Position numbers and translations under genes: made by a program. Shown in pieces: positions 9,111 to 28,041 of a DNA stretch of 64,000 bases (position 1 is its first letter; every line of letters starts with the position of its first letter). Below the pieces are notes generated by a model, which did not search any database, had not been told where the DNA came from, and saw nothing but the letters and a program-made list of their open reading frames with translations. The DNA comes from Bacteriovoracaceae bacterium (GTDB lineage Bacteria; Bdellovibrionota; Bacteriovoracia; Bacteriovoracales; Bacteriovoracaceae), in the NCBI GenBank assembly GCA_041586955.1, contig JBFGZE010000002.1, positions 43,451 to 107,450 on the forward strand, given 5' to 3'.

Positions 9111-10487
9111 ATGAACTTAGCTGGCGCCTTACTTGTCTTCCTTTTGGCCACCCCCATTGTACTGGCCAATAATAACAATATTATTCAATCAACTGATAAA
9201 AGTTTTTATATTGAAAAGTTTTATTATGAAGATTTTGTTTATTCACAAGGAAAAAAAACGGAATTAGGTGATCAAGTTGAGTTGGACGTCGCTTTTCGGT
9301 ATCAATATAGCAGCTCTACTTTTGCACGCATTCGCTTTGAAACAATACCTGAAGACAATCGCTTTAATAATAAAACGTCTAAGTTTGAGTTATTGGCCGG
9401 TCACCAATATGAAAATCTTAACTTTCAATTAGACCTGGAATTGGATGTCAATAATAGTTCAAGTGGAGGTCAAACACTTGGTCTCGATCTTGATAGTGAA
9501 TATACTCGTCTTCAATGGCAATTGAATAATAAAGTGTCCCTTTCATTCTACCCCTTTAATTTTGATGGAGAAGTTGGTCACAAATTCAATACATGGGACG
9601 TAACACGAATTAATTATATTAGTGGTGCCCCCTCGACCGTTTCAGAAACCCAAGGGACAAATAGTATTGTCAATAAAACGATTCCTGGCCTGGAATTAAA
9701 ATATCAATTTAATGACAGTTGGTCGGCCAATGTCGGACTTGGTGTAGCATCCTATTTATATCCAGCTAATGGTGACTTCGACATCCAAAATTTTCCAACT
9801 GCTACTCGCTGGGAAAGAAAGGAAGACTTTGGCCATAAACTTGGTGTTCAATACAAAAAAGAAAACCTAAAGTTGTCGGTTGATTACGTGGGCCATAGCG
9901 AGCCAAAAGAAACAGGAGCGCTTTTGGAAAATGCTTGGTCGGTCTATGGCATCGGTCGAACGTCACAGGTGTTAATTGAAGGTGAGTTTACGTTTACGAA
10001 AAACGGAAAGGAGGCCTGGGATATTGCCCGCGGGAGCGATTGGTTTAATAATACGACTACACCATTTATGCCTATTTATGCTGATTACGATGGGAATAGA
10101 CAAAATTGGCTAGGCCAAAGTGATTATGCCATAAGCACTAAAATTGGATACGAATGGTCTAAATCTACAACTCCTTATGTCACCCTTCGCTATCAAGGAA
10201 AAAACTTTATTTTTAGAGATGAAGAGTCGGCCCACCGTTTAAGAACCGCCGATGAGTCTCAATCTCATGGTGGTCTGATTCGCACGGGCCTTGGGACTTA
10301 TTTAAAATATGGAAACTTTACGGTCAATCCAGAATTAGAATATCGTAATGCAAAAAATCCAGTTTTCACCAACGCAGCTGATGAGGTTAGTAGTCAGCGG
10401 CTTCTGGGTAACTTCAAAAAGACAGATTACTTAATTACTTTATTTTTAACCTATGATTTCGATGGTCGAATGATCTTTGCTCCTTAG
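9111..10487 (+). CDS. Putative outer-membrane beta-barrel protein
   Basis: Sec signal peptide, many alternating aromatic beta-strands, near-terminal LFLTYDF strand; RBS GAGGA. Confidence 0.7.
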   Translation: MNLAGALLVFLLATPIVLANNNNIIQSTDKSFYIEKFYYEDFVYSQGKKTELGDQVELDVAFRYQYSSSTFARIRFETIPEDNRFNNKTSKFELLAGHQYENLNFQLDLELDVNNSSSGGQTLGLDLDSEYTRLQWQLNNKVSLSFYPFNFDGEVGHKFNTWDVTRINYISGAPSTVSETQGTNSIVNKTIPGLELKYQFNDSWSANVGLGVASYLYPANGDFDIQNFPTATRWERKEDFGHKLGVQYKKENLKLSVDYVGHSEPKETGALLENAWSVYGIGRTSQVLIEGEFTFTKNGKEAWDIARGSDWFNNTTTPFMPIYADYDGNRQNWLGQSDYAISTKIGYEWSKSTTPYVTLRYQGKNFIFRDEESAHRLRTADESQSHGGLIRTGLGTYLKYGNFTVNPELEYRNAKNPVFTNAADEVSSQRLLGNFKKTDYLITLFLTYDFDGRMIFAP

Positions 10488-10504
10488 TGGGCCAAGGGGA
10501 TAAT

Positions 10505-12040
10505 GTGAATAGATTGATAAATATTTTGACACTTCTTTTTCTTCTTACCGCCCTAAGTGCTTGTGGAGATAAAAGTGAAACCTTAATTAAGGATATCAAT
10601 TCTAAAAAGGTGGAAGAGGCCATTTCTAAAATGGATGAAATTCAAACATCTATAGCAGAAGGCCAATTATTAGGGCGTACGAGTCGCAATGATAAAAGAA
10701 AAATTAATGAGACCCTGAAACAATTAAAAATCAATTTGATGGCACTCGACCTTAACCCATTAGACCATAAGGCCCTTGAGAGAATAGTCCGGCATTTGCG
10801 GTTTTTTGAAACGAAGATATTATCAGAAAGAGATATTCCACGGTTAAACGCCTTAGTCGATATCGTTCGCCAAGAGGCATCCCGTTATGCAGGTCTTCAG
10901 GGCACTAGTTTGGCGCAGGTCCCATGGCCTTTATATAATTATGGATTTTCGCGCGGGATTGAACCCTTTGGAGTTTATTCAGATGGGAATAATTGGGAGC
11001 GCCGCTATTCACAAGATAGATCCTCAGCAAATGTCAGAAATGGAGGCAGAGATGGAGAGTCTTGGCTATTGACCCCCACATTTAACCTTGCTGGTGTTGA
11101 TAACCCTATTCTTAGTATTAAGCATCTTCTCATGATTGATGATAATAATCGCAGTCGAGTTCCTTTAAATATGGGGAAAATCCTTAGTGATGCCTTTAAA
11201 GTTATGGTCACAACTAACTTTAAGGAGGGGCCACAAAGTCTCGACAATAATTTATGGGAGGAGCTAACTTTAGATCGTCTTCCAAGTGGTAGAGATTTTC
11301 ATAGTCTAACCTCTTCAGTATCATTAAAAAAATACCGCGGGCATAATGTCACGATTGCCTTTATTCTAAAAACAAATACCAAAGAAATTGGTAATCATTT
11401 TTTGACTTGGCAAATAGAGCGACTGCGAATATTAGGCGCCGCCGATAAAATGACTTACTCCCCCCGTCAAAAACCTTTTAACCCTGATGATGAAGATGAT
11501 CTTGGTAAAGAAGTTCTACATTGGTCTTTTCGAGAGAAAGGAATGGGCAACCTCCAGCAGACGGCCTTGTCGGGTACTCCTGGAGCATTTTCCTATAATG
11601 AGGGCCGAGGTTGTGCCATTATTAGTCCTAATCGAGAGAAGCTATTCGGAAAACAATTATTATATACCGGAATTTTGGATTTAACGGTGGTTAAAGAAGC
11701 TGCCATGCGTGTTCATCAGACGATTAATTTTTATACGGAAGAGGCCAAAAAACATGATTTGATTAGTATTAAGATCGCTGAAGTCGTCGAAGGGGTAGAG
11801 GTTAGTGATCTTAATTGGTTAGAAATACCATTTAAGAGAACTCCCGATGGAAGCGGATGGAATAGCATGAAGTCCGAATGGGTCAAGTTGCCAACTGCCC
11901 TCCAAGGAAAAAAGGTACGGCTTGGGTTCTTTTATGAATCATTGAAGCAAACCTCTGATGATGGCAAAGTCACTGATTTTTTTCCCGCATGGCAAATTTA
12001 TGACTTTTGGGTCAATGATTTAACTGGAGTCGAATTGTGA
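10505..12040 (+). CDS. Lipoprotein with helical stalk and two repeated beta-sandwich (DUF5017/cleaved-adhesin-like) domains
   Basis: GTG at 10505 after AAGGGGA; lipobox LSAC; repeats ESWLLTPTFNL...VTIAF...WQIE and LLYTGILDL...VRLGFFY...WQIYD. Confidence 0.65.
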   Translation: MNRLINILTLLFLLTALSACGDKSETLIKDINSKKVEEAISKMDEIQTSIAEGQLLGRTSRNDKRKINETLKQLKINLMALDLNPLDHKALERIVRHLRFFETKILSERDIPRLNALVDIVRQEASRYAGLQGTSLAQVPWPLYNYGFSRGIEPFGVYSDGNNWERRYSQDRSSANVRNGGRDGESWLLTPTFNLAGVDNPILSIKHLLMIDDNNRSRVPLNMGKILSDAFKVMVTTNFKEGPQSLDNNLWEELTLDRLPSGRDFHSLTSSVSLKKYRGHNVTIAFILKTNTKEIGNHFLTWQIERLRILGAADKMTYSPRQKPFNPDDEDDLGKEVLHWSFREKGMGNLQQTALSGTPGAFSYNEGRGCAIISPNREKLFGKQLLYTGILDLTVVKEAAMRVHQTINFYTEEAKKHDLISIKIAEVVEGVEVSDLNWLEIPFKRTPDGSGWNSMKSEWVKLPTALQGKKVRLGFFYESLKQTSDDGKVTDFFPAWQIYDFWVNDLTGVEL

Positions 12041-14535
12041 GAAAGGTTTTCTTTTTAGGACTTTTACTCCTGATTGGCTGTGGTAAAGAATCCTATCGTT
12101 TGGACAATGGGGAATACCTCGTTTCTGCCGATAAAAAATATGAAGGTTCAACCACAGCTGGAAACCTAATTACGACCGCAATCAAAGAAGTCCATCAATT
12201 GGACATGGTTTTTTACCCAAGTGATTTTCTTAATGAGTCACTTAATGGATTGGTTCGTCCCAATCTGACTCCTCGTGAAATTACTGAACTGAAAAAGTTA
12301 TTTCCTACTGCCACCAAAGATCAATTCATGGTTGGTACGATGAAAGGGAAAGATATAAAGAAGTTTGTTATCGGCCGCTCAAATGATACTTATCGTGCCG
12401 ATTTGCAGGTGGCGGGGCTTCGCTATCATATTCACACTGTCGGTGGAGTTAGGCAATATGCCTATTTTAATAGGCCTGAAGGTTTAGAGTTTGAGGACAA
12501 TGAGTATTATAATGTGGCCATTTCTCATTATTTTTATTTTTCAGGTCAAACTTTTCCCTCCTATAAGTACCGCAATAGCTTTAGTCATTCATTTAATTTT
12601 TCCTCGACCATTATATCGGCACGCGATTCATTAGAAACTTATTTGAAGACGATTAAAAATCTTCCCTATCTCAAAGAAATTCGCGCTAAATATACAAGCT
12701 TTATTAAAGGTGATGCCGGAGCTGTCAAAATCTATCAGATCCAAGGAGAATCACATCGCAGCCCCTTATTAGGGAAGAGAGTCACGACAAGTGGTATTGT
12801 GACCGCTTTTGGTTCAGTGGATTGGTACCCTGGTGGAATGGATATTATCATTCAAGATAAAAATGGGGATGGTAATGACCATACTTCTGATGCCGTACAT
12901 ATTCACGTTGATAATAAGGCCTTAAATATTCAATTAGGAGATCATATCTCCGTTACCGGAGTGGTTTATGAAGAAATGATGGGAAATGGGCTTGGTAAGA
13001 CTTCCATCAGAGAAGTGATTAAACTAAGCACAATTTCTTCAGGCAATGCCTTACCGGCACCAGTCATTTTGGGGATGCGAGGCAGGCCTATCCCGGATTT
13101 TAAAATTTCATCTTTTATAGGAGATTTGAATTTCAAACCCAACCTTTCACTTTTTGAAGGGATTGATTTTTACGAATCATTAGAGGGCATGCGAATTGAA
13201 ATTAATAATCCCGCGGTTGTCGGATTTCGTGGTGGTAAAGAAGAATATGAAGGGCAACGGCCAAAAGGTCATTTAAGCCTCTATCTGGTACCCGATTCAA
13301 AAGCTCGCCACGATGGACGTACATTGCCTGGCGGGATAATCATCGGTGAGAAAGGTGAGGATTACAATCCTGAAATTATTCAATTATCAGCTAGTCATTT
13401 AAGCCGAGGGATTAATACTGAAACGATTTTTAATATTGGTGATATTTTAGAGGGTGCTATTGTTGGCAATATGAGCTTTGAGAAAAATATTTTCGGTGGT
13501 GGTGATTATACGATGGTCCTACCTCTGGCACAAAAGGCCTTGGGCCATGAATTTAAGGGGCGCGGTCTTGTTCCTCTCTCTAGTCGACCTAAGACGGCCC
13601 TCGTCAGCTCAAAAGATCATCTGACGGTGGCCAGTTTTAATGTGGAAAACTTGGCCGGGAACCAACCTCTTCGTATCAAGGAGATTGGGCGTTCGATTAA
13701 AACTAATTTGAAATGTCCAGATATCGTCAACTTAGTCGAGATTCAGGATAATAATGGTGTTTCTTTAAATGGTGGCCCTGATGCTCAATTAACTCTTGAA
13801 AAATTAATTAAAAAAATCAAATGTGGTGTCAATGTAGAGTATAAATCAATCAATATCGATCCTCTTAATCATAGTGAAGGGGGCCAGCCCGGCGGAAATA
13901 TTCGCGTTTCGATGATTTATAACGCCAAACGCGTGGGTTTTTCTCCGAGAGGGCAATCAGGGGCACTGGAGGAAACTCGTGTCGGCCCTGATGGAAGTCT
14001 TAATATCAACCCTGGACGAGTTTTCCCTGGTAGTGATGCTTTTAATCGCACACGAAAAAGCCTTGTCGTAGAGTTTACATTTAAAGGTGAAAAAGTACTT
14101 CTTATTGGAAATCATTTTAATTCTAAATTAGGAGACACTAGTTTTTGGTCAGCACAACAGCCACCTCGCTCACGGTCTGAAGTAAGACGTGTACCTGTTG
14201 CCGAAAAGGTTAATGAATTCGTTCGTATCTTAAATCAACGGAACCCGAAGGCGAATATTATTGTGCTTGGAGACTTCAATGCCCTTGTTCACGAGGCATC
14301 GATGAGGGTTTTGGCCGGTAATGAACTTTATAATTTGATGACTTATAAGAACCTTGTTGATCCTAAGGATCGCTATACCACTAATCATAATGGAAATTCC
14401 CAGCCTCTGGATTATATCTTTGTGAATGGTAATTTAATTAATAAGTCACCAGAATTTGAAATCCTGCATATTAATTCCGATTTTATGGGGCGATTATCAG
14501 ATCATGACCCAATTATTGGGCGATTTAAATTTTAA
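12037..14535 (+). CDS. Extracellular lipoprotein nuclease: 5'-nucleotidase C-terminal-like domain + YhcR-type OB fold + EEP domain
   Basis: Lipobox LIGC; GNLITTA and LQVAGLRY; IYQIQG...SPLLGKRV; ESLEGMR; SFNVENL, EIQD, NHFNSK, GDFN, LDYI, SDHDP. Confidence 0.85.
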   Translation: MRKVFFLGLLLLIGCGKESYRLDNGEYLVSADKKYEGSTTAGNLITTAIKEVHQLDMVFYPSDFLNESLNGLVRPNLTPREITELKKLFPTATKDQFMVGTMKGKDIKKFVIGRSNDTYRADLQVAGLRYHIHTVGGVRQYAYFNRPEGLEFEDNEYYNVAISHYFYFSGQTFPSYKYRNSFSHSFNFSSTIISARDSLETYLKTIKNLPYLKEIRAKYTSFIKGDAGAVKIYQIQGESHRSPLLGKRVTTSGIVTAFGSVDWYPGGMDIIIQDKNGDGNDHTSDAVHIHVDNKALNIQLGDHISVTGVVYEEMMGNGLGKTSIREVIKLSTISSGNALPAPVILGMRGRPIPDFKISSFIGDLNFKPNLSLFEGIDFYESLEGMRIEINNPAVVGFRGGKEEYEGQRPKGHLSLYLVPDSKARHDGRTLPGGIIIGEKGEDYNPEIIQLSASHLSRGINTETIFNIGDILEGAIVGNMSFEKNIFGGGDYTMVLPLAQKALGHEFKGRGLVPLSSRPKTALVSSKDHLTVASFNVENLAGNQPLRIKEIGRSIKTNLKCPDIVNLVEIQDNNGVSLNGGPDAQLTLEKLIKKIKCGVNVEYKSINIDPLNHSEGGQPGGNIRVSMIYNAKRVGFSPRGQSGALEETRVGPDGSLNINPGRVFPGSDAFNRTRKSLVVEFTFKGEKVLLIGNHFNSKLGDTSFWSAQQPPRSRSEVRRVPVAEKVNEFVRILNQRNPKANIIVLGDFNALVHEASMRVLAGNELYNLMTYKNLVDPKDRYTTNHNGNSQPLDYIFVNGNLINKSPEFEILHINSDFMGRLSDHDPIIGRFKF

Positions 14536-14586: not shown

Positions 14587-15204
14587 TTATGACTGAACTT
14601 TAACTAATTCGATCTTAAAAAGAAGCGTGGAGTTTGGTCCGATTTGCGGCCCAGCACCTTGTGCGCCGTAGGCCAAGTTTGAAGGGATCGCCAATTCAAA
14701 AATATCACCTTCTTTCATTAATTGGAGGGCTTCGGTCCAACCAGGTATAACTCCACTTACGGGAAATGTTGTGGGCTCGCCTCTGCGGTAAGAAGAGTCA
14801 AAAACAGTCCCATCAATTAACGTTCCCTCATAATGGGCCTCCACTGAGCATTCAGTGGTTGGTGTTTTACCTGTTCCAGATTGAATAACTTTATACTGAA
14901 GGCCACTGGCAGTGACTTGAACGCCTTCTTTTTCTTTATTTTGAGCTAAGAAAGATGCACCAGCTTGCTCGTTGGCCGCACCTGAAGCGGCAGCCGCTTC
15001 TTGTTGTTTCGCCTGCATTTCCATTTGGAAGGCCTGCATGATTGTTTGAGTTTCTTCAGGACTAATAAGTCCTGGTTCGCCCAAGGTCGCTGATTTAACA
15101 GCAGCAGTAAAAATTTCTGTATTGATTTCCAAACCTTGAGCGACAAAGTCACCGCCGATTTGACGACCGATTATATAACTAATCTTATCGACTTGAGTTT
15201 CCAT
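14587..15204 (-). CDS. FKBP-type peptidyl-prolyl isomerase (FklB/Mip-like)
   Basis: KISYIIG dimerisation N-domain; HYEGTLIDGTVFDSS, VIPGWTEAL, LAYG. Confidence 0.95.
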   Translation of the reverse strand: METQVDKISYIIGRQIGGDFVAQGLEINTEIFTAAVKSATLGEPGLISPEETQTIMQAFQMEMQAKQQEAAAASGAANEQAGASFLAQNKEKEGVQVTASGLQYKVIQSGTGKTPTTECSVEAHYEGTLIDGTVFDSSYRRGEPTTFPVSGVIPGWTEALQLMKEGDIFELAIPSNLAYGAQGAGPQIGPNSTLLFKIELVKVQS

Positions 15205-15511
15205 GAATAACCTCTTGCGTTAAACGATTTAAAGTGAAGTTTCAATATAGGAAAAGGTCATAAAGTTGACAATGTTTTATAGGGTAATAGGGCCTATTTG
15301 ATAAATAAAAGGGGTTTTTCGCGTTTAAATTGATCTTTTTCGGTGGAAGCTCGTTCATCGTAGTGGAAATAAGGCGAGGAAGTCGTAGATCGCCAGTGGC
15401 GATTTTACATTGGCCGAGCCTTTTAGTTTATCTACATCTAGGTGCGGCATACTCGGCAAGTGTATGATATAATAATGACCAATTAATTTACTTATTTGTT
15501 TGAGGTCGTGA

Positions 15512-16135
15512 ATGGATTCATCATTAATTCAAAATCTTTTTAATTTTATTACTAATAATATTTTTATCATTATCTATGTTTTTGCCGCGATTGAGATATA
15601 CCTGGTCATCAATATCTTTTTTATGATGAAAAAGCATGAATTGGTTCTTACGGATGTATCAGATAATCTTTTAAAAGGATTTAGCGACGCCCCTGACCGT
15701 GACTCGAACCAGACTACTCATGAACGAATTGAAGCGGCCTTGGACTTTATCCACTATAAAATTTCAATGGGATCAGAATATAAAAAGGAATTTGTCGCCA
15801 ATGCGGGCAATATTAGCAAACGAGCATTTTATGGCCGGCATTATAAAATTGAAATATTTGCCAGTGTGATGTCGACATTAGTTCAGGTTTTTCCTCTTCT
15901 TGGAATTTTGGGAACAATTTTGGCGATCGCTCAAACGGCTTTTCAATCGGGCGGGCAAATTGATGTCTCTTCGCTGTCCAATGCTTTTGTCTTGGCGATG
16001 GATACCACCATACTTGGTATTACCTTTTCCATTATTTTTATGGTCATTGAGAGTACTTTTCAGCCAAAAATTGAAAGGGTGATCAATGAAAGTTCTGATT
16101 ACCGAGACCTGGTCTCTAAAATCAATTTATCTTAA
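15512..16135 (+). CDS. MotA/TolQ/ExbB proton-channel family protein
   Basis: FPLLGILGTI and AMDTTILG TM motifs; three TM segments. Confidence 0.85.
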   Translation: MDSSLIQNLFNFITNNIFIIIYVFAAIEIYLVINIFFMMKKHELVLTDVSDNLLKGFSDAPDRDSNQTTHERIEAALDFIHYKISMGSEYKKEFVANAGNISKRAFYGRHYKIEIFASVMSTLVQVFPLLGILGTILAIAQTAFQSGGQIDVSSLSNAFVLAMDTTILGITFSIIFMVIESTFQPKIERVINESSDYRDLVSKINLS

Positions 16136-16148
16136 GGATTAAGAGATA

Positions 16149-16733
16149 ATGAGACCTACTAGAGTTTATAAAAAAACAAAAAAAACCACAGTCCAACTAA
16201 CATCTTTATTAGATCTCCTATTTGTGATGATTTTTGTCTCGTTAATTCAGCAAAAATCTGCGGCACCTATCAAAGTAGAAACCGTCGCTGAAAAAAAAGT
16301 GGTGGAACAAGAAGTTCCACCCGTTGCTAAGCCGATCATTAAACCAACTGCAAAACCTATCTCCACTCCAGCACCTATTAAACCGACTCGCTATACAGTG
16401 CGTGCGACATTTAATTTTTATGGCACGCCCAATAATAAGGCCTTACCTCGTGGTTCTTATGTCATGCAAGGGCAATTTGATGAGAAGACCAGGAAATTGC
16501 AATTGGGAGGGAGTCACTGGATTGAGAGACCGAAGCATTATGATATGGTTCCGCTTTCAGGAGAAATTAATACTGCTAATAACGAATTTAGAGGCCGTAT
16601 CGAATTTCAAGGTTGCCAGGAATTTACATTGAAAAAAGTTGCTCAATCTGGTGACAAGGCCATTAGTGGATCCTGGAAGGGAGAGTACTCCTGTTCGCAA
16701 GGCCCTACTGGATTGACTCTAACGATTGAATAA
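16149..16733 (+). CDS. ExbD-like TM anchor + Pro-rich linker + atypical beta-rich domain
   Basis: LTSLLDLLFVMIF (conserved Asp), PPVAKPIIKPTAKPISTPAPIKP, Cys-containing beta domain. Confidence 0.65.
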   Translation: MRPTRVYKKTKKTTVQLTSLLDLLFVMIFVSLIQQKSAAPIKVETVAEKKVVEQEVPPVAKPIIKPTAKPISTPAPIKPTRYTVRATFNFYGTPNNKALPRGSYVMQGQFDEKTRKLQLGGSHWIERPKHYDMVPLSGEINTANNEFRGRIEFQGCQEFTLKKVAQSGDKAISGSWKGEYSCSQGPTGLTLTIE

Positions 16734-16749
16734 ACCTTTCAAATGTTAT

Positions 16750-16778
16750 CGATGGTATTATAATACCATCGTTTTTTT
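16750..16778 (+). terminator. Perfect 22-bp palindrome followed by T7 (terminator and/or operator)
   Basis: CGATGGTATTATAATACCATCG then TTTTTTT. Confidence 0.6.
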
Positions 16779-16793
16779 ATACGGAGCAAACGC

Positions 16794-17597
16794 ATGAATA
16801 TCGCAATTTTTGGAGGCACTCACGGTAATGAGCCATTAGGCATTGAAGTGATCAAAACTTTAGAAAAAAATGGCCCTCATCAAACGAATCATTCCTTTCA
16901 AACATTTCTCGGAAACCCTAAGGCCTATGAACTGCAAAAACGTTTTGTCGATTGCGACCTCAATCGCTGCTTTGGCGTTAATGGCCGCTCCCATGGTTAT
17001 GAACAAAAACGTTCACAAGAATTGGTTCAACAGGTTGCAGGGAAGTTTGATTTTGTGGTCGATATTCATACCACCACAAGTAATATGGGAATGACCATTA
17101 TTCTCACTCAAACAGATGAGCGGACGCGTAAGGTGGCCGCCTTTTTGAAAAAAAAATACCCTAAATTGATTTTGATCGAAACCATTAAAACAGACGAAGA
17201 ATGCTGTTATATTTGTAATATGGCGCCTAGTGGTTTTATTTTCGAATTTGGTGCTGTTGCCAATAATGTGATCCGCTTTGATCACTTCAAAATAGTCTAT
17301 AATATGGTTTTAGATATTCTTAACTTCAATGAAACTGATGAGATCGATTTATCTCAAGTTGAATATTTCAAATCTTATGAAGATATCAAGTTTCCGGATG
17401 GTTATTATATACACCCTGAAAGAGAAGGAAATGACTTTATGCCTGTGGCCCCTGGTCAGCCGCTTTTTATCAATTTTTCTGGGGAGGTTTTGAATCATGA
17501 AGGCGATGAAACGATATACCCCATGTTTATCAACGAGGCCGCGTATCAAAACGAGCGCCTTGCCATGACTCTTTCTAGGAAAAAGATTGGTTTTTAA
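16794..17597 (+). CDS. Aspartoacylase (AstE/AspA family, M14 zinc hydrolase)
   Basis: GGTHGNE, DLNR, DIHTTTSNMG and FINEAAY motifs. Confidence 0.9.
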   Translation: MNIAIFGGTHGNEPLGIEVIKTLEKNGPHQTNHSFQTFLGNPKAYELQKRFVDCDLNRCFGVNGRSHGYEQKRSQELVQQVAGKFDFVVDIHTTTSNMGMTIILTQTDERTRKVAAFLKKKYPKLILIETIKTDEECCYICNMAPSGFIFEFGAVANNVIRFDHFKIVYNMVLDILNFNETDEIDLSQVEYFKSYEDIKFPDGYYIHPEREGNDFMPVAPGQPLFINFSGEVLNHEGDETIYPMFINEAAYQNERLAMTLSRKKIGF

Positions 17598-19772: not shown

Positions 19773-21218
19773 ATGAAGGGGCAGGATGCTTTGGTGCTGA
19801 TGCCAACAGGAAGTGGGAAATCACTTTGTTACCAGATCCCCGCCCTCGCCCGGGAGGGGATGGGGATTGTGATTAGTCCACTTATTAGTTTAATGGGAGA
19901 TCAAGTTCAAAAACTACATGGCCTTGGCGTGCGCGCCCATTTTCTTAATTCCTCCTTGAAAAAGAGTGACGAAGAAGAAATCACACAGGCAATACTGGAC
20001 GGAGAAGTCGGGCTCCTCTATATGTCCCCTGAAAGGTTTTGCAAACCAGCGATTTTATCCCTTCTTAAAAAAGTTAAAATTTCATTGATTGCTGTGGATG
20101 AGGTTCATTGCCTCTCTGTTTGGGGTCATGACTTTAGACCTGATTACCGTCATATGTGTCTGCATCTTAAAAATTTTGACCAGGTACCTAAAATGGCCCT
20201 CACGGCCACGGCAGGGCCTGAAACTCAGAGTGATATTATCAAGGCCTTGGGTTTAAAAAAGGCGCAGGTTTTCAAAACTCCTTTAAGTCGCCCTTATCTG
20301 CAATTAACAATGAGGGAGCGTCGCCTTAAAGATTATGATGATTTAATAAAGGAAGTAAGAGCGCGTAAGGATAAAGCTGGAATTATCTATGCCCAGACAC
20401 GCAAGGAATGTAATGCGATCTATCGCCTCCTTAAAAAGGAATTAAAAATACCCATGGGGATTTATCATGGGGGATTAGCAATGAAGTCGCGTGAGGCCGC
20501 CCAGGATAAGTTTATTAAGGGGAAATATTCTCTTATGGTGGCGACCTTGGCCTTTGGTATGGGAATTGATAAAAGAAATGTGCGGTTTGTTTTTCATTAT
20601 GGCATGCCTAAAAATTGTGAAAATTATTATCAGGAAACAGGACGGGCAGGCCGGGACCGCGAGGCCAGCGAGTGTATTCTTTGGTATCACGGCCGAGACA
20701 TTGTTATTCATAAATTATTAGCGAGAAAGGGGAGGGGCAAGCGCCATCCCCAATACGCCATGGAAGTTCGCAAAATCGAACGGATGGCAAGTTTGTGTCG
20801 TGGCCCCTTTTGCCGGGAACGGGTTATTATTAATTTACTGGGTGAGCATGGTGAGAATTGTGGCCAATGCGACAATTGCCTTTCTACCCCTGATATCATT
20901 CGGCAAACATTTGAAAACGATTTTATGGGGGTCTTACGCCTTCTTATCTATTTTAAGGGCAAGGTCGGTATTGATAAATTTATCAAAGTTCTCCAGGGGA
21001 TTATAGACCAGAATGCCCGCCAAAAAGGACTTTTTAATATCGAATATTTTGGAATTTGGAGTGACCATAAAAAAAATGAGGTCTATCATCGCTTTTATTT
21101 AATGGAGCAATTATCGCTCATTAAATTTGTTGATCGCAGTATTACACTCGGCCCCCAGGCCTTAGACTGGGTTCTTCATAATCAAAAAGAGAAGGCGCAA
21201 GCGCCCGCTCTCTTATAA
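19773..21218 (+). CDS. recQ: RecQ-family DNA helicase (no HRDC domain; coding region appears to extend upstream of this ATG)
   Basis: MPTGSGKSLCYQ, DEVHC...WGHDFRP, TATA, AFGMGIDK, QETGRAGRD, CGQCDNC. Confidence 0.93.
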   Translation: MKGQDALVLMPTGSGKSLCYQIPALAREGMGIVISPLISLMGDQVQKLHGLGVRAHFLNSSLKKSDEEEITQAILDGEVGLLYMSPERFCKPAILSLLKKVKISLIAVDEVHCLSVWGHDFRPDYRHMCLHLKNFDQVPKMALTATAGPETQSDIIKALGLKKAQVFKTPLSRPYLQLTMRERRLKDYDDLIKEVRARKDKAGIIYAQTRKECNAIYRLLKKELKIPMGIYHGGLAMKSREAAQDKFIKGKYSLMVATLAFGMGIDKRNVRFVFHYGMPKNCENYYQETGRAGRDREASECILWYHGRDIVIHKLLARKGRGKRHPQYAMEVRKIERMASLCRGPFCRERVIINLLGEHGENCGQCDNCLSTPDIIRQTFENDFMGVLRLLIYFKGKVGIDKFIKVLQGIIDQNARQKGLFNIEYFGIWSDHKKNEVYHRFYLMEQLSLIKFVDRSITLGPQALDWVLHNQKEKAQAPALL

Positions 21219-23132
21219 TTTTCCTTTTTCAGAGAAGAAGTTAAGTGGTTGTCTGACGTCCACAACACCGCCACCTTTAGGTCGTGGAAAATTGATTGAA
21301 CGTAAGACACGTGTCATGCAACCACTTCCTCGTTTGGAGAAACGTGACCTCTTGGTTTTTATACCAACTTTGGAGACCTTACCACTACCAAGAATTCTAA
21401 ACTTCAGATCGACGACACCTTTAACGGCTTCATTTATCTCTAGTTCTTGTTGGTAACAATGTTGGAATTGAGGAATATATTCGCGTAGGATACGGCGTAA
21501 GAGTTCAGGGTCCATAGAACCGAGAACAACCGTTTTGGCACTGGAAAAGGCGGTATTGATACCTTTTTTACCGGCCACACCTTTAAGTCCTGTCGATGAA
21601 TCGTAATTTCCAGAAAAATCCTGGCCTAAGGTACTGACATTACCCGAAACCTTTGACTTAAAATTCCCTTGAGCGCTATTACTGGCGGCGAAGCCTTTTG
21701 CTGAACCGGTTGTCGCTGAGCGCGTTTTCATATTGCTATTGGTTAAGCTTTTATTGGCCTTAAATAATGAGCTGTATTTATTATTTAACTTAAGCTTATA
21801 GGCCTTCACTTTAGGTGCTTTCGTCACCTTAGGTGCTGGCGCAGGTTTGGTTTGGGACTTTTTGGCCACCTGTTTCTTCTTTGTCACCTTTTGCGTTTTC
21901 TTTGGCGTCTTAGGAGTCTTTTTGGCCATTTTAGGTTGCTTTTTAGATTGGTTATTCTTTTTAATACCCTGATCTTTACTTTCTTTTTCCGCTACAGAGG
22001 ATGATTTTTTATCCGACGGTTTTTCCGTTTTTGTGGCCTTCTTTCGATAAATGACGGCGATCTTTTTCTCGGGTTCGGGTTTAGTGATATCTACAAAGAG
22101 TAGTAAAAGCATAAGGCCCATCACAATTCCAAAAACCTTACCGGCCTCTTTACGAAAGCGGTGGTCTGGTTGAAAGAAAGGACTGACCTTAAGATGGGGC
22201 GGGCAATCCACGGTTTTAATCATGATTTGCAAGGTGCCAACCTTATACATCCATAAATCATCTAGGCGATAAGTTGACTGGCTATTTCCTTGAAAAGGGC
22301 AGGTGCCATTATTACTAATATTTGAACATTCCAGACCTGGAATTTCAAAAAGAGTAACTCCCTCAGCTGAAACCTTAACAAAGGGTAAACGATCTTCAGA
22401 TTCGAGTGCTTCAAAAAGAAGAGTATTTCTTTTTTTGACTGTCGCTGAAAGGTGAGTGGTTTTATTTTTATTGAGGGGGATGTAATCTACTGAAAGAATT
22501 GTTCCCATAGAGATGACAGTGACTTCAATTGCTTTGCCATCGCTCGCTTTTATAATATCCTTAATTTCATCTTCTGGATTTTCAACGACATCAATGAATT
22601 CTTCAGTGTCAATGATATTTTCAAAGGCATGAATTGTACTAGAAGTGGTGTACCAAGATTCATCGAATTTAATATCGCAATATTCCCCATCAATGACGAC
22701 AAGACCGGGATGGGGGGGGAGTTCATCAGGTAACTCGGTGATATAATCCTCGGCAACCTTTTCAACTTTCCCTTTATCCTGATCGATAAATTGTAGGGGT
22801 TGATCGTAGGTGCTTTCTTCAATTGATAACTCAGTGGTACCAAAATGAATTTTATCACCACCGGAGAAATAAGACTGAGATGTTCTTTGACCATTAATAT
22901 AAACACCATTATCACTACCAAGATCGATAACTTTACCGCCTTCTTCATCCATAATGATGAAGGCATGGTAATGCGAAATATGAGGATTATCGATAACAAT
23001 ATCACAATGTTCGGCACGACCAACCAATAACTTTTTCTTATCGAGTAAGAATTGGTTTTTTAGCTCACCTTGATGGTAATGAACGAGGCGAAATATTGTT
23101 AACGCGTTCTTAGAAATAGCTAATGGTTTCAC
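21213..23132 (-). CDS. FHA + TM + Lys/Pro-rich linker + AgmX/PglI (TonB-C-like) domain protein, GltG-like
   Basis: FHA motif GRAEHCDI...SHYHA...DLGSDNG; one TM; C-terminal CYQQEL...FPRPKGGGVV. GTG start at 23132 is inferred. Confidence 0.8.
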   Translation of the reverse strand: MKPLAISKNALTIFRLVHYHQGELKNQFLLDKKKLLVGRAEHCDIVIDNPHISHYHAFIIMDEEGGKVIDLGSDNGVYINGQRTSQSYFSGGDKIHFGTTELSIEESTYDQPLQFIDQDKGKVEKVAEDYITELPDELPPHPGLVVIDGEYCDIKFDESWYTTSSTIHAFENIIDTEEFIDVVENPEDEIKDIIKASDGKAIEVTVISMGTILSVDYIPLNKNKTTHLSATVKKRNTLLFEALESEDRLPFVKVSAEGVTLFEIPGLECSNISNNGTCPFQGNSQSTYRLDDLWMYKVGTLQIMIKTVDCPPHLKVSPFFQPDHRFRKEAGKVFGIVMGLMLLLLFVDITKPEPEKKIAVIYRKKATKTEKPSDKKSSSVAEKESKDQGIKKNNQSKKQPKMAKKTPKTPKKTQKVTKKKQVAKKSQTKPAPAPKVTKAPKVKAYKLKLNNKYSSLFKANKSLTNSNMKTRSATTGSAKGFAASNSAQGNFKSKVSGNVSTLGQDFSGNYDSSTGLKGVAGKKGINTAFSSAKTVVLGSMDPELLRRILREYIPQFQHCYQQELEINEAVKGVVDLKFRILGSGKVSKVGIKTKRSRFSKRGSGCMTRVLRSINFPRPKGGGVVDVRQPLNFFSEKGKL

Positions 23133-23148
23133 GACCAATACTCTCTCA

Positions 23149-24027
23149 TTAACTACCTTTAACCTTCTTGTTAGATGGTGTCCGGTATTTTTTGCGAGTC
23201 TCAATTTCCTTCATACGTTCAACAATTAGACCCATTAGGTGTTTACTTGGTACTCTTAAGGACATAATAAAAGTATTATTTTGATCCTTTAATATACTTT
23301 TCGCATTATTTAATTTTCCTAGATGGAATAAAACGAGAGCATAATGATAAGCGATATCTTCACGCTTTTGACCCCGTACATCTATTTTATTAAAATACTT
23401 TTCTGCCAGTGTAAGATTATTTTCAAATAAGGCGATTGTTCCTAGACTGGCGAGAATATCGGGGTCTTTTTGATCGACGTTTAAGATATTTTCAAGGTAC
23501 TGCTTCGCGCTTCTTAAAAGGCCAAATTTAATCTGCAACTGGGCGAGATTGAATTTTGGAGTGAGGGCGGATGGATTGTGGGTGATTGCTTGCTTAAAGG
23601 ATTTTTTCGCTTCAACATAATTTCGCAACTTCATATGGACGAGCCCCATATTATTAGAAATCATTGCCTTCGTTTGACCGCCTGAGGGTCTGGTTAATGC
23701 CATTTGGTAAAAATAAATGGCCTTTGGAAGGCGATGACCTAAATAATAGCAAGTTCCAAGCGCATTCCAATAGGAGGCCATCGTTTCATTGCCATTTAAA
23801 GATCTTTTAAGGATAACTAGGCCCTTGGGAACCTGTCCCCCGTGGCATTTTGCCAAGGCCTTTTCAACCTTGTTTTTGCTCTTTGCGAGTATTGCCAATT
23901 TTTGGTTATTCCAACGTAAATAACTCTCGCTTTTAAGAGCATCGGCAACTATACCTTCACGGCGCTTAATTTGATAACTACCACAGCTCGTTAATAATAA
24001 TAGTAGGACAATGGAGAAATTTCTCAT
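23149..24027 (-). CDS. TPR lipoprotein, GltE-like
   Basis: Lipobox LTSC; TPRs (YWNALGTCY, NNMGLVH, FNLAQL); operon context. Confidence 0.75.
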   Translation of the reverse strand: MRNFSIVLLLLLTSCGSYQIKRREGIVADALKSESYLRWNNQKLAILAKSKNKVEKALAKCHGGQVPKGLVILKRSLNGNETMASYWNALGTCYYLGHRLPKAIYFYQMALTRPSGGQTKAMISNNMGLVHMKLRNYVEAKKSFKQAITHNPSALTPKFNLAQLQIKFGLLRSAKQYLENILNVDQKDPDILASLGTIALFENNLTLAEKYFNKIDVRGQKREDIAYHYALVLFHLGKLNNAKSILKDQNNTFIMSLRVPSKHLMGLIVERMKEIETRKKYRTPSNKKVKGS

Positions 24028-26966
24028 CGTCGTTCTCCTCGTTGATCCATTGTTATGACCAACTTTTTAGCGGGGTATCGATAGTAGCTGCTGTTAACGT
24101 TCTGACGAGTTTTAAGAAAATGATTATTATATATACTCAAAATTTCGTTTTTATCGAGAATGGAAAATGCGGTTTGATGGTATTTATTGACTTGTCCTTT
24201 AAAGTTTTGAGTGAGGCCATTCATTTGGGTTTTGAACGCCACCACATACTCTTTAGGCATTCCCTTAGGAGTAAGGCCATCAATTGCGCTGATTACTTTA
24301 TTATAGGCCGTAATCAGGTGATGATAGGTGCCAACTACAATATTAGGTTCACCACTCTTGATCAATATCTCAGCACGGGAGGTGAATGTTTGAGTATTGG
24401 AAAGAATACGCTCTAACTCGGTATTAAATCTTTTTTCATCAAATTTTGGGCCTGAGGTAAGGGAAGGCGCAAATTGAGTAACATCATGTTTAGAGAAGTT
24501 CTCAAAGTCTAAAATACTGGACATCATAGGGATGCCTTTATTCTTAGAACGCAGTTTTGAAAAAATATTAGTGACTGTCTTTTTTAACCCTTCCTTTTGC
24601 TCCATCACTGTATCCCAATAAATAGCGACCAGGTCAGTGTTAAGCTTATCTCTAAGCTTTGGGTTTTCCTTATTTTGAATAAAGAAGTCAAAATAATCAG
24701 GATATTTCTTATTGACCATAAAATGGGCCATCATTTGCTTGGCAAGGGTTGTCTGAGTTTCTTTTTTGATTTTGCATTGGTTGGCCGTTTGAAGGAGACG
24801 GTTGGCCTCCTTAAAGTTGTTTTCAACTAAATTAATATGAATGGAATGTTGAAAAAACTCCGTCTTTAATTTGAAATCCTTTTGACAAAATTTAGTATAA
24901 AGAGTGGTCGTCAAAAGGGATGATACTTTAAAGTTTTGCAACTGCACCATTCGTTGAGAAATCGTCCAATATTTAGGCATTAATTTAAGGATTTCCTTCT
25001 CCTCAAAATGATGAAGAGATCTGGCCATCCACTGATAAGACAATTTTGTCAGTTTTTGTTCGAGATAAAGGGTACCTATATTATAGGCGGATTGGGCCTT
25101 TACCTTTGCCGGATATTTTGGATGTTTATAAAGCTTAGCATAGCCAGCAATAGCTTCTTTTTTCTTTCCTTGGCTATCAAGCTTTTGATATTCATTAAAA
25201 AGTAGACTGACCAAAACGAGGGTAGCTTTTTCAATATAATCTTTGTCAAAGTTAAGAAAGCCGCTATCTAGCTTGGCAATCCAAGCAGCGAGTTTTGTAA
25301 TATTCTTACTCTTAATATAATTATCAATGACACCAATGAGCATACCGCGCTGGATCTTTTGGTCCTTGGGGTAATTGGCAATATATTTATTAAGAACCTT
25401 TAAAGAATTTTTAACTTTTGTTTTCTTGACATAAATATTAAATAACTTGCGGTAAATGACTTGCGAACGGGGATCTTTTGGCCATAGGTTTAAGTGGGTT
25501 GAATAGCTATAGGTTGTGTAGTAATAGCGCTCTTTTGGGCCCAATTGCTGAATAGCTTCCAAGGAAGCGAGAAGTGCATCCATCGTTTGACGCGCTAGCG
25601 CCAGTTGCTTAAGTTCTTTCCCTTTAACTTCAATAATTGGTTTTTTCTTTAATTTAAGAACTCTTTTCGTAATTTCCATTGAGGTTTTATATTTAGGTAG
25701 GGCATCCTTGAAACGCTTTAAAGAGTAATAGGTTTCCCCTTGGTAAAAGCGATAAAGGTTTTCTCTAGGCCTATCAATTGAAGAGAGTATGTCAAAATAA
25801 CTGATAATTCTATTAAGTCTCTCCTCGGAATAGGTCGCTTCAAACTTATTCACATCCTTTGAGATTTGAACTTGGAGAAATCCGACCATATCTTTCATTT
25901 TTTCAGTGGCCTCAAAAAGCTTCTCTTTATCGAGCTTGGAATTTTGAGAAAGCGTGAGAATGTCCTGTGATGTTGTAAAGTGGTATTCGTAATATTTCAT
26001 ATTGCGATAGATCTCTAATTTCGCTAAATGAACATCTAATTGATTATTTGGTTTTTTATGTTTTTTTGCATTTTGAAGTGCTTCGCCGAGAATAAATTGG
26101 GCCTTTTTAATCTTCCCCTTATCGGCGGTTTTTTTTGCCATTTTGATGAGATACTCAGTAGGGATATTGACATGTTTTAAATAAAAATTTACCCCTTCAT
26201 CAAATCGATCTGCTAAAACGTAAAAAAATCCTATGGCATTAAGGACCTGGTCTTTAACATCAATATATTTTTTTTGATGACTTAATTTAAACGCTGTTCG
26301 CATTGCCCCGATGGCCTTATCTACTTCTTTTGTCTTGAGGTAGCACCAGGACATATTGAGATAATGTTTAGATAACCATTCATCTCTTGTTCTTTTGACG
26401 ATATCTTCGTAATAACCAATGGCCTGCTGGTATTTTTTGTCATTATAATAATGCTCGGCCAATGCTGTTTTAATAAAATGAACAATTTTATCGTAAGGGC
26501 CTGTATGAGAGAGCGCTCTTTTTAAATAATGTTCGGTGCGATTATCCATTCCGTAGTCACGGGAATTGAGCGCCAAGGTATAAAAAATATCGGCATTATA
26601 GCGAAAACGAGGGAATTTTTTGACGATGGTGAGAGCATCTCGTTTTGTTTTTTGGTAAAGAGATAACGTCTCCTTAAAGTACTGCCGCTTGGGGCCAGTG
26701 ACCTTGCCCTTTGCTGCGAGTTCAATGAATTTGATATTCTCTTTTTCACGAATAAGTTTAAGCTTTTCCGACTGCAATTCCACCAAGCGGTAACGCAGTT
26801 TAGGGCCCAGATCTTTCATTTTGCGTATTGTCTTTATTTCTTTTTCAATCATCTTATAAAGTTTTGACCATTTTGCTTTCGCAGCGTTATTCTTCTTTGC
26901 GGCCAAGGTTTGGCCACAAAGAAAAAGCGAAATTAAAATAGTTAAAACTTTAAAAAAATTCATCAA
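24024..26966 (-). CDS. Large periplasmic TPR protein, GltD/AgmU-like
   Basis: Signal peptide, 980 aa helical with TPRs (ALAEHYY, WCYLK, GETYY); operon context. Confidence 0.72.
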   Translation of the reverse strand: MMNFFKVLTILISLFLCGQTLAAKKNNAAKAKWSKLYKMIEKEIKTIRKMKDLGPKLRYRLVELQSEKLKLIREKENIKFIELAAKGKVTGPKRQYFKETLSLYQKTKRDALTIVKKFPRFRYNADIFYTLALNSRDYGMDNRTEHYLKRALSHTGPYDKIVHFIKTALAEHYYNDKKYQQAIGYYEDIVKRTRDEWLSKHYLNMSWCYLKTKEVDKAIGAMRTAFKLSHQKKYIDVKDQVLNAIGFFYVLADRFDEGVNFYLKHVNIPTEYLIKMAKKTADKGKIKKAQFILGEALQNAKKHKKPNNQLDVHLAKLEIYRNMKYYEYHFTTSQDILTLSQNSKLDKEKLFEATEKMKDMVGFLQVQISKDVNKFEATYSEERLNRIISYFDILSSIDRPRENLYRFYQGETYYSLKRFKDALPKYKTSMEITKRVLKLKKKPIIEVKGKELKQLALARQTMDALLASLEAIQQLGPKERYYYTTYSYSTHLNLWPKDPRSQVIYRKLFNIYVKKTKVKNSLKVLNKYIANYPKDQKIQRGMLIGVIDNYIKSKNITKLAAWIAKLDSGFLNFDKDYIEKATLVLVSLLFNEYQKLDSQGKKKEAIAGYAKLYKHPKYPAKVKAQSAYNIGTLYLEQKLTKLSYQWMARSLHHFEEKEILKLMPKYWTISQRMVQLQNFKVSSLLTTTLYTKFCQKDFKLKTEFFQHSIHINLVENNFKEANRLLQTANQCKIKKETQTTLAKQMMAHFMVNKKYPDYFDFFIQNKENPKLRDKLNTDLVAIYWDTVMEQKEGLKKTVTNIFSKLRSKNKGIPMMSSILDFENFSKHDVTQFAPSLTSGPKFDEKRFNTELERILSNTQTFTSRAEILIKSGEPNIVVGTYHHLITAYNKVISAIDGLTPKGMPKEYVVAFKTQMNGLTQNFKGQVNKYHQTAFSILDKNEILSIYNNHFLKTRQNVNSSYYRYPAKKLVITMDQRGERR

Positions 26967-27466
26967 TGATTTCCCTGCACAATAAACTTAAACTGTGGAA
27001 AACCTGCAATGGCCGCAGTATGCATTACTTTTTGCATAACTTCGTAAGGCAAGTTTTGATCTATAACGAGGTTAACGTTTTTATTATAGAGCTCCTTAAT
27101 CTTGCCATCCGCTGAAGGTTTTCGATTAATTGCACCCTTCTTTTTCTCTTCTTCTTTATAGGAAATGAGGCCATCATATAGTGATTCAATTTTTTCGCCT
27201 CCGCCACTCATGACACCTATCGGCTTGTTATTGATAAAAATTTTGCGATTTTTGTTCACTTGGACAATAATGGCGTGATTTCCAAGGGTTTCAGACTTAG
27301 AATTGGGTAAATCTAGGCCTTTTACCACATCGACAGTCAAATCTGAGGCATTATAGCTTTTGAGAAGAAAAACCAACAAAATGACGAGGATATCAAGTAA
27401 TGACGTGATATCTATCTCCATTGGTTCACTCTTTTTACGAATAGATTTAAATTTTTTTTGTCTCAT
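26963..27466 (-). CDS. ExbD/TolR-family protein (AglS-like)
   Basis: DITSLLDILVILLVFLLKSY; DQNLPYEVMQKVMHT. Confidence 0.88.
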   Translation of the reverse strand: MRQKKFKSIRKKSEPMEIDITSLLDILVILLVFLLKSYNASDLTVDVVKGLDLPNSKSETLGNHAIIVQVNKNRKIFINNKPIGVMSGGGEKIESLYDGLISYKEEEKKKGAINRKPSADGKIKELYNKNVNLVIDQNLPYEVMQKVMHTAAIAGFPQFKFIVQGNH

Positions 27467-27475
27467 ATCTCACTC

Positions 27476-27994: not shown

Positions 27995-28041
27995 GATTTC
28001 CTCACACGTCTCATTTTTTTCAAAAACTGCTTATATTAATC

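Follow-up and report, generated by a model that had tools for sequence, protein, structure and literature searches.

Ion motors with a 5:2 subunit plan drive flagella, TonB-dependent uptake, the Tol-Pal system, gliding, type IX secretion and Zorya phage defence. Surveys of the family stress that many of its divergent members lack assigned outputs (PMC12505986; PMC12204202). In the systems named TPH-vWA, a TolQ-like gene occurs without tolR or exbD, and its partner joins an Asp-bearing transpore helix to a foreign periplasmic domain (PMC12204202). This partner was proposed to act as a force transducer from inside the pentamer, and the genes are found mostly in heterologous pairs, mainly in Proteobacteria and Verrucomicrobia (PMC12204202). 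Here we analyzed a 64,000-nucleotide stretch of DNA (the window) from a Bacteriovoracaceae bacterium (assembly GCA_041586955.1, contig JBFGZE010000002.1, positions 43,451 to 107,450 of the forward strand), which carries a two-gene locus denoted A-B. Gene A encodes a predicted member of the MotA/TolQ/ExbB family. Gene B encodes its putative partner, in which an Asp-bearing membrane helix is followed by a tether and by a modelled beta-barrel with a circularly permuted strand order.

The locus is small (401 residues in two genes), and its putative axle subunit appears to have swapped the usual periplasmic domain for a tether and a binding barrel. It is tractable for studying how motors get rewired to new targets and whether an axle alone transmits force. 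The barrel is a well-supported natural circular permutation with tandem intermediates still extant, and it belongs to a widespread extracytoplasmic domain without a Pfam or NCBIfam model that is worth naming.

Gene A encodes a predicted MotA/ExbB-type subunit

Genes A (15512..16135, 207 amino acids) and B (16149..16733, 194 amino acids) lie on the + strand of the window, 13 bp apart. Both open reading frames (ORFs) were found where the original prediction, made from the DNA letters alone, had placed them. The genome that contains the window is 3.46 Mb in 194 contigs and is 88% complete.

The original prediction described A as a compact MotA/ExbB homologue. In agreement with this, A matched the Pfam family MotA_ExbB (PF01618) over residues 111-193, with an E-value of 5.5e-11 and 42.8 bits against a cut-off of 22.9. 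PF01618 was carried by 29 of the 30 protein-atlas neighbour clusters of A, and homologues of A are recorded publicly as 'biopolymer transport protein ExbB/TolQ'. A word-indexed search with A returned 328 matches, of which all 120 listed were at least 67% identical. When A was compared with the nine other MotA/ExbB-type ORFs of its genome using hhalign, 184 columns were aligned (Prob 96.7, E 4.5e-10). A cleared no NCBIfam equivalog for ExbB or TolQ, as its sole match, TIGR02805 (exbB2), reached 26.3 bits where 135.35 are required. By these profile matches, A is a MotA/TolQ/ExbB family member without a named equivalog and a putative pentameric channel subunit.

Hydropathy analysis (Kyte-Doolittle) placed the first hydrophobic segment of A at about residues 11-40 (15542..15631, + strand). 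It is followed by a predicted cytoplasmic loop at about residues 41-112 (15632..15847, + strand) and by segments 2 and 3 at about residues 113-144 and 157-183 (15848..16060, + strand). The N-terminal 13 residues contain no K or R, these residues come after segment 1, and the loop contains 12 of them. Because of this charge distribution, A fits an N-out, three-helix topology like that of ExbB and TolQ. Segments 2 and 3 carry the motifs FPLLGILGTILAIAQT (FPLLGILGT(135)ILAIAQT) and AFVLAMDTTILGI (AFVLAMDT(165)T(166)ILGI), and T135, T165 and T166 were invariant in 27 A-family sequences. The hhalign alignment pairs these GT and TT motifs with the consensus stretches 'GLlGTv' and 'AL.tTa.Gl' of the ExbB/TolQ/MotA paralogues of the genome, and the Thr positions presumably match residues of E. 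coli ExbB or TolQ. The loop, of about 70 residues, carries an invariant acidic motif that reads …DNLLKGFxDAPDxDS…. Across the same 27 sequences, the loop residues H42, D48, N52, L53, G56, D59, P61, D62, D64 and S65 did not vary. No known Pfam domain was found in it.

Gene B joins an Asp-bearing helix to a variable tether

B matched no Pfam or NCBIfam model at E<=1, and it had no PADLOC match. It has 259 homologues of similar length, and its homologues are recorded publicly as 'hypothetical protein'.

The Asp-bearing transmembrane helix of the original prediction was recovered as a single hydrophobic segment at residues 13-35 (16185..16253, + strand), which AlphaFold2 modelled as a helix at residues 17-33. 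The helix, resembling that of ExbD and TolR, reads LTSLLD(22)LLFVMIFVSL (LTSLLDLLFVMIFVSL) and contains no His. Asp22 (codon 16212-16214) was D in 134 of 139 aligned B-family members, the exceptions being fragments or forms without the helix. The first 16 residues of B include six K/R and no D/E, and because of this basic N-terminus before the helix, an N-in orientation fits.

Several ExbD paralogues of the same genome are nearly identical to B in the helix ('DITSLLDILVILLVFLL' versus 'QLTSLLDLLFVMIFVSL' in B). In hhalign, B aligned with the 11 ExbD paralogues over 33 columns (Prob 82, E 1e-5), covering residues 3-35 only. A genome-wide scan with PF02472 (ExbD/TolR) listed 11 other ORFs and did not list B. 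Pfam likewise detected no OmpA-like domain (PF00691) and no TonB_C-type domain in B. On these alignments, the Asp 'transpore' helix is all that B has in common with ExbD/TolR.

Residues 36-80 (16254..16388, + strand) form a linker rich in Lys, Pro, Val and Thr, with a predicted local distance difference test (pLDDT) score of 63-67. It is a gapped region of the family alignment and ranges from 24 to 57 amino acids across the family (median 37.5). With 24.4% K and 18.2% P, it corresponds to the TonB-like Pro-rich spacer described before. A search of solved structures with the B family profile (HMMER) gave nothing meaningful. The sole matches, Cmr5 (E 0.063) and a capsid protein (E 4.2), fell over the low-complexity linker and were dismissed.

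The C-terminal domain of B is modelled as an eight-stranded beta-barrel

AlphaFold2 modelled B residues 81-193 as an eight-stranded up-and-down beta-barrel (pLDDT ~98). Its larger part, the body (residues 81-166; 16389..16646, + strand), consists of six strands at residues 81-93, 102-111, 116-126, 136-140, 146-151 and 158-166. A short joining loop (residues 167-173; 16647..16667, + strand) leads to the terminal hairpin GxWxGxYxCxQGxTGLTLTI (residues 174-193, plus E194; 16668..16730, + strand), which has strands at residues 174-182 and 185-193. In the hairpin, G174, W176, G178, Y180, C182, Q184 and G185 were invariant in 139 B-family sequences. The domain had been described as beta-rich and as neither the ExbD C-terminal domain nor OmpA. 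This holds, as the domain has no Pfam match and models as a barrel rather than as an ExbD or OmpA fold.

We then searched for similar folds with B residues 78-194 using Foldseek and VIA-align. The best Foldseek match was the C-domain of NHBA (5o1r_B, E 8.5e-4). Other barrel look-alikes were the fHbp and TbpB barrels, nitrobindin, YceI/BcnB and avidins (VIA-align Z 7-10 overall). De novo eight-stranded barrels (Z 10.0) and the outer-membrane protein OmpW (Z 10.1) ranked equally in VIA-align. The fold matches had 4-16% sequence identity, and, as the tool itself notes, generic barrels often reach Z values of this size. OAA lectin, avidin and DUF5991 also appeared in the protein atlas (0.75-0.79; the best score, 0.84, belonged to unnamed clusters), but these were rejected as chance-level by the guidance of the tool.

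Two Cys residues, C156 in the body and C182 in the hairpin, were invariant in all 139 B-family sequences. In 44 sequences of the canonical order described below, the hairpin Cys was also invariant, and the Cys of the last strand was kept in at least 90%. The canonical positions are on the first and last strands, at the barrel seam, while in B they are on the adjacent strands 6' and 7'. Judging from the strand register of the model, a C156-C182 disulfide likely staples the barrel of B.

The barrel is a circular permutant of a widespread unnamed domain

To place the domain in a wider family, we searched 1.84 billion representative sequences exhaustively with B using HMMER and obtained 1327 clusters at E<=1e-3. 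Among the 150 listed, all but a small share match B through the barrel. Most of these 150 are unlike B, with a signal peptide at the N-terminus or with the domain set within larger secreted proteins. No model for the barrel domain was present in the copies of Pfam and NCBIfam that we searched.

In the canonical form of the domain, the GxWxGxYxCxQGxTGLTLTI hairpin stands directly before the body, and the body, AxFxF…NPxVPxGxYxMxG…LxL…W..xPxGYxMVxLxG…G…C..F.L.R, ends the domain. The original prediction had given two motif strings for such a domain. Both are present in B and in the order that it stated, the body string first (residues 86-161) and the hairpin string after it (residues 174-191).

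The proposed circular permutation was confirmed in three ways. First, when B was compared with 149 representatives using phmmer, the match to residues ~165-193 of B lay directly N-terminal of the match to residues ~83-165 in most distant relatives. Second, we scanned 151 proteins with separate hidden Markov models (HMMs) of the hairpin (H) and the body (B). The order was HB in 83 proteins, HBHB in 23 and BH in 22, and the remaining 23 had rarer or incomplete patterns or no qualifying stretch. A cruder classification of 150 proteins assigned 80 to the H-B order. Third, we made the reciprocal test with a profile built from 44 canonical-order proteins, which is independent of B. Positions 61-147 of this profile matched the window at 16392-16652 (E 6.2e-31), and positions 28-58 matched downstream of them at 16644-16736 (E 1.3e-8). 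Across the whole genome of the window, the profile matched in gene B only.

Strand-by-strand matching of conserved residues was used to assign the strand order. The body of B corresponds to canonical strands 3-8 and the hairpin to canonical strands 1-2, and the comparison of strand lists and alignments shows that the joining loop connects the points at which the canonical domain ends and starts. By this matching, the predicted barrel of B is a circular permutant by one hairpin, with the strand order 3-4-5-6-7-8-1-2. The B orthologues themselves share a single order, yet 83 of the 151 wider relatives are hairpin-first. The permutation is thus relative to the wider domain family and not within the set of B orthologues. 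A canonical member, P0169, was also modelled by AlphaFold2 with eight strands (pLDDT ~97). Its best structural neighbours were small eight-stranded barrels too, with the same de novo barrels and nitrobindin that were found for B, and the NHBA/fHbp/TbpB group was absent.

Tandem forms of the domain, HBHB and HBHBHB, are common. They suggest the classical route to a permutant, in which a tandem duplicate loses material from its two ends, and this is the most likely origin of the permuted form. To examine the number of origins, we constructed a phylogenetic tree of 162 barrel units (109 columns), in which hairpin and body were re-joined in canonical order. P0164, P0174 and P0183, which were ambiguous and either N-truncated or long, were left out of the tree. 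All 21 permuted units fell in one clade of 25 (support 0.78), although the tree may be biased by the HMMs that delimited the units, since these derive from the B family. The canonical-order units P0186, P0226, P0227 and P0230 were nested in this clade on long or weakly supported branches, and because of these four units a single origin of the permutation is only suggested.

Among the proteins examined, fusion to an Asp transpore helix was found only in the permuted form. Four permuted proteins have no Asp helix (P0135, P0137, P0139 and P0153). Two of them, P0139 and P0153, begin with leaders of the signal or lipoprotein-like type. P0137 combines a membrane anchor that lacks the Asp with a Pro-rich linker, and P0135 is probably truncated. 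P0137, P0139 and P0153 may mark steps between the secreted and the motor-fused forms.

The domain occurs together with Pkinase, FGE-sulfatase, SLH, PKD, Sel1, TPR, ankyrin, PG_binding_1, OmpA, peptidase M4/S8, dockerin and Ig-like domains, and it was also found in a 'serine/threonine-protein kinase' of a Streptomyces plasmid. The signal peptides and these partner domains indicate that the barrel is a promiscuous extracytoplasmic module. The SLH-domain proteins and the Streptomyces kinase belong to organisms that are not known to possess an outer membrane.

These data bear on two other views of the barrel of B, namely that a truncated tandem repeat left it as a remnant unable to fold by itself, or that it is embedded in the outer membrane. 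HBHB tandems make up 23 of the 151 proteins, and the transmembrane barrels of OmpW, OprF and OmpA were among the top VIA-align matches (Z 9-10). However, AlphaFold2 closes residues 81-193 into eight strands with a pLDDT of ~98, as it does for the canonical form, and soluble barrels of ~110 residues designed de novo are equally good matches (Z 10.0; TMt up to 0.75). The canonical domain is also present in SLH proteins and the Streptomyces kinase, and the permuted order is kept in 259 homologues under selection. We therefore consider a remnant or an outer-membrane barrel very improbable.

Genes A and B form an accessory pair restricted to one lineage among the sampled genomes

We examined 50 related loci in contigs from one genome per species. 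An orthologue of A was located directly upstream of B in 49 of them, and the 50th locus begins inside B at a contig end. Forty-eight loci came from genomes named as Bacteriovoracia, Bdellovibrio-like or Oligoflexia metagenome-assembled genomes; one was labelled Flavobacteriaceae and one Proteobacteria. Relatives of both A and B are labelled Bacteriovoracaceae or Halobacteriovoraceae in records, and a homologue is on record for Halobacteriovorax sp. JY17, a culturable carrier. The stretch, whole or in part, was present in three DNA runs of one marine-metagenome study, and among the sequencing runs matching the stretch no RNA run with A-B was listed.

Identity across the loci was 62-85% for A and 39-58% for B. 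This is relevant to a non-motor explanation, in which B would be an anchored periplasmic sensor or binding protein and A a degenerate channel-like chaperone, the pair serving in signalling or scaffolding. The canonical barrel is carried by Ser/Thr kinases (P0142, P0154 and the Streptomyces plasmid kinase) and may serve them as a sensor outside the cell, and A is a divergent member of its family. On the other hand, A is more conserved than B, to a degree that would not be expected of a decayed channel, and the residues of the ion path are the most conserved of all (Asp22 in 134 of 139 sequences; T135, T165 and T166 invariant). We regard a non-motor role as improbable.

By clustering the flanking ORFs, we found no third conserved neighbour, as no other gene cluster occurred in more than 6 of 51 neighbourhoods. 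The neighbourhood survey that had been proposed thus indicated that A and B stand alone. The recurrent neighbours were unrelated genes, encoding isocitrate dehydrogenase, sulfate permease, inositol monophosphatase, an epimerase, a glycosyltransferase, AcrB, GreA, PilZ and FHA proteins. A 248-amino-acid PilZ-domain protein was located a few genes 3' of A-B in 5 of the 51 neighbourhoods (L013, L029, L031, L046 and L047), which is too rare for linkage.

These neighbourhoods also argue against an anti-phage module with a motor of the ZorA/ZorB type. A gave a weak PADLOC match to ZorA2 (E 7.6e-5), confined to the MotA-like positions 38-130 of 505. B had no such match, A has 207 amino acids and no long C-terminal tail, and the neighbours are housekeeping genes, with no ZorC/D-like or defence genes conserved nearby. 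A Zorya-like function is extremely improbable.

To determine how the pair is distributed, we sampled the phylum evenly (301 genomes). Nineteen of these genomes carry A, comprising 17 of the 67 in the family of the window, 1 of the 18 in a second family and the genome of the window itself, with none in the rest. The barrel, detected with the canonical-domain profile, was found in exactly these 19 genomes, always beside A and in a single copy. No barrel apart from B was detected in the 301 genomes, so that in this lineage the barrel exists as B only. In this sample, the A-B module is autonomous, single-copy, accessory and restricted to one lineage.

A-B is a candidate ion-driven complex of the inner membrane

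The features most conserved in the two proteins, the helix with the Asp and the pore helices with their Thr residues, are those of an ion path, and they are kept as an operon-like pair. For this reason we consider it probable that A-B is a self-contained, ion-driven complex of the inner membrane, of the MotAB/ExbBD/TolQR kind, in which B provides the axle, the tether and a binding barrel. The label of a proton-motive-force-driven stator, which the original prediction gave to the pair, derives from homology and synteny only. We infer likewise the 5:2 assembly, the coupling to protons, the output of force through B and the nature of its target.

In such a complex, five A subunits would presumably ring two B helices. 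A would give the channel ring through its Thr-bearing helices 2 and 3, B would give the central Asp22 helix, and the passage of ions would rotate or cycle these helices within the ring. The Lys/Pro tether would pass this motion to the partner of the barrel in the wall or the outer membrane. The small soluble barrel would serve for binding in the periplasm, where it would hold, pull or turn on a component of the cell wall or the outer membrane. B would thereby act as an axle like ExbD and reach out like TonB or TolA. A polyproline-II helix extends by ~0.3 nm per residue. At this value an extended B tether may span ~7-17 nm, which would reach the wall and possibly the outer membrane. A complex prediction for four copies of A with two copies of B residues 1-45, which is a 4:2 subset run without controls, gave a score of 0.10 (mark 0.32) and speaks on neither side of the question of binding.

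Several observations weigh against an ion-driven complex of this kind. In the whole-genome PF01618 scan, A scored 43.6 bits and was the weakest of the 10 matches above the cut-off; the eleventh, at 21.6 bits, was below it. No solved ExbB, TolQ or MotA chain was matched by A or by the A family profile in HMMER searches. The ExbD-like match of B covers 33 residues in a one-to-one hhalign comparison (Prob 82), where Pfam ExbD failed. The fold matches of the barrel are generic, with a best Foldseek E-value of only 8.5e-4, and therefore give no ligand. The module is accessory, as shown by its presence in only 17 of 67 genomes of its own family. Finally, the loop of A is as strongly conserved as its channel helices in the 27 sequences, so that an output towards the cytoplasm instead would also be conceivable.

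This last point leads to an alternative view of the same complex, with the barrel as a static anchor to peptidoglycan or to some other fixed part of the envelope, like the OmpA-like domain of MotB, and with the work done through the acidic loop of A on an unlinked partner. The loop motif does not vary among the 27 sequences and is reminiscent of the charged loop through which MotA contacts the rotor. SLH, PG_binding_1 and OmpA, which are domains associated with the wall, are among the partners of the canonical barrel. However, the cytoplasmic part of A is just ~70 residues without a recognisable domain, no conserved third gene was found near A-B, and no peptidoglycan-binding motif was identified. 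A tether of 24-57 residues suits a transducer that reaches and binds no less than it suits an anchor. Taken together, we find a static anchor unlikely and favour the ion-driven complex with the barrel as its binding end.

A more specific version of the ion-driven complex can be put forward tentatively. A-B might be a minimal two-protein envelope machine peculiar to Bacteriovoracia, with an axle that is itself the periplasm-spanning transducer without TonB or TolA, and with a permutation that is functional. Bacteriovoracia are predatory bacteria. The barrel might act as a hand that grips a target in the outer membrane or the wall during prey attack or envelope remodelling. The permutation would shift the attachment of the tether from the disulfide-closed seam at canonical strand 1 to strand 3. 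The disulfide would then staple an internal hairpin, and force would meet the other, unstapled seam, which might tune the response of the barrel to load. We see this version as possible and do not expect all of it to hold.

Surroundings of the locus and other motor genes of the genome

Upstream of A, on the minus strand and divergently oriented, lies a gene for an FKBP-type isomerase (14587-15204; Pfam and window ORFs). The intergenic region between the two genes (15205..15511, 307 bp, 5' of A on the + strand) contained no sigma-70-like site on the + strand by consensus scan, the counts being equal to the shuffled expectation. An Rfam search of 15150-16900 at E<=1 gave no match in this region. 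The only match in the searched interval was RefA5, inside B on the minus strand, at 27.5 bits against a gathering score of 91, and it was taken as chance. A terminator-like hairpin on the minus strand (16261-16321), also inside gene B, overlaps this sub-threshold match and is probably due to chance as well.

Directly 3' of B, a terminator-like hairpin with a stem of 9 pairs, followed by a T run (TTTTTTTATA), was found at 16750..16781 (+ strand). It was identified by consensus alone, in a scan that gave 2 such sites with 1.5 expected by chance. Downstream of B are an AstE/aspartoacylase-like gene and genes for an aminotransferase, a methyltransferase and a RecQ-like helicase. The Pfam-annotated neighbours of A-B include no TonB, TolA or flagellar gene, which agrees with the original prediction.

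The window also contains a conventional motor cluster on the minus strand (21213-28734). It comprises an ExbB-like gene (28042-28734), two ExbD-like genes (27476-27994 and 26963-27466), two genes for TPR proteins of 979 amino acids (24024-26966) and 291 amino acids (23149-24027), and a gene for an FHA-domain protein of 662 amino acids (21213-23204). Clusters of the Planctomycetes-Verrucomicrobia-Chlamydiae (PVC) group are described as 'TPR + tolQ-like + two different tolR-like genes' (PMC12204202). The cluster in the window has this PVC-type layout and recalls Agl-type gliding motors. The 3.46-Mb genome has 11 MotA_ExbB and 11 ExbD profile matches in all, which is unusually rich for its size, and several ExbD paralogues occur in heterologous pairs (contigs C15, C68, C11 and C2).

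Upstream of A-B, on the + strand (9111-14535), three genes follow one another. The first two encode Pfam-less proteins of 458 and 517 amino acids, the latter with a lipoprotein-like N-terminus. The third encodes a protein of 832 amino acids with 5'-nucleotidase C-terminal and endonuclease/exonuclease/phosphatase domains. Together they may supply a predator with secreted nucleases.

Comparison with known systems

A-B resembles ExbB-ExbD and TolQ-TolR in its gene order and tight spacing, in the three helices, Pfam domain and Thr positions of A, and in the N-in Asp helix of B. It differs from them in that B has no ExbD/TolR periplasmic domain (no PF02472 match) and has its own Pro/Lys tether. There is also no TonB or TolA gene beside A-B, and A is far under the NCBIfam ExbB equivalog cut-off.

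TonB and TolA share with B a layout of a membrane helix, an extended Pro/Lys-rich linker and a small globular C-terminal domain. The helix motif of TonB and TolA is of the His-containing SHLS type (PMC12204202). In contrast, the helix of B has an Asp and no SHLS-type His motif, and B has no TonB_C-type domain. With an Asp and without the His motif, B would be expected inside the ring rather than at its edge.

MotA-MotB and PomAB belong to the same superfamily of ion motors with an Asp helix in a ring. However, the B model has no OmpA-like domain or plug helix, and A is short (207 amino acids), without a large torque-generating cytoplasmic domain and without flagellar genes nearby. B thus lies outside ExbD/TolR, MotB and TonB/TolA, because the defining domains of these families fail to match. 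The pair differs from Zorya ZorAB in that A has no long tail and no ZorB, ZorC/D or effector genes are its neighbours.

With the unnamed GxWxGxYxCxQG secreted domain, B shares the conserved residues, both Cys and the eight-stranded barrel of the AlphaFold2 models. The difference is that the strand order of B is rotated by one hairpin, which makes B its permuted member. The likeness to small eight-stranded barrels such as NHBA, fHbp/TbpB, YceI/BcnB, nitrobindin and avidins is at the level of the fold only, and no shared function is implied.

The original prediction called the stator undescribed. A search of the full-text literature, at the level of titles and abstracts, gave no description of an Asp-helix/beta-barrel protein that accompanies an ExbB-like gene in Bacteriovoracia. 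The idea of joining the helix to a foreign domain does have a precedent in TPH-vWA (PMC12204202), where, as in A-B, a TolQ-like gene without an adjacent tolR or exbD is accompanied by an Asp-helix partner, the likeness being one of architecture. A-B differs from TPH-vWA in having a permuted eight-stranded barrel as its periplasmic domain, with no vWA match in Pfam, in having one partner gene, and in its occurrence in Bacteriovoracia. By this analogy, A-B would follow the same logic as the published TPH-vWA proposal, which is the closest described kind (PMC12204202). The ion-motor family was already known, and what A-B adds is a permuted barrel and tether carried on an Asp helix and paired with an ExbB-like gene.

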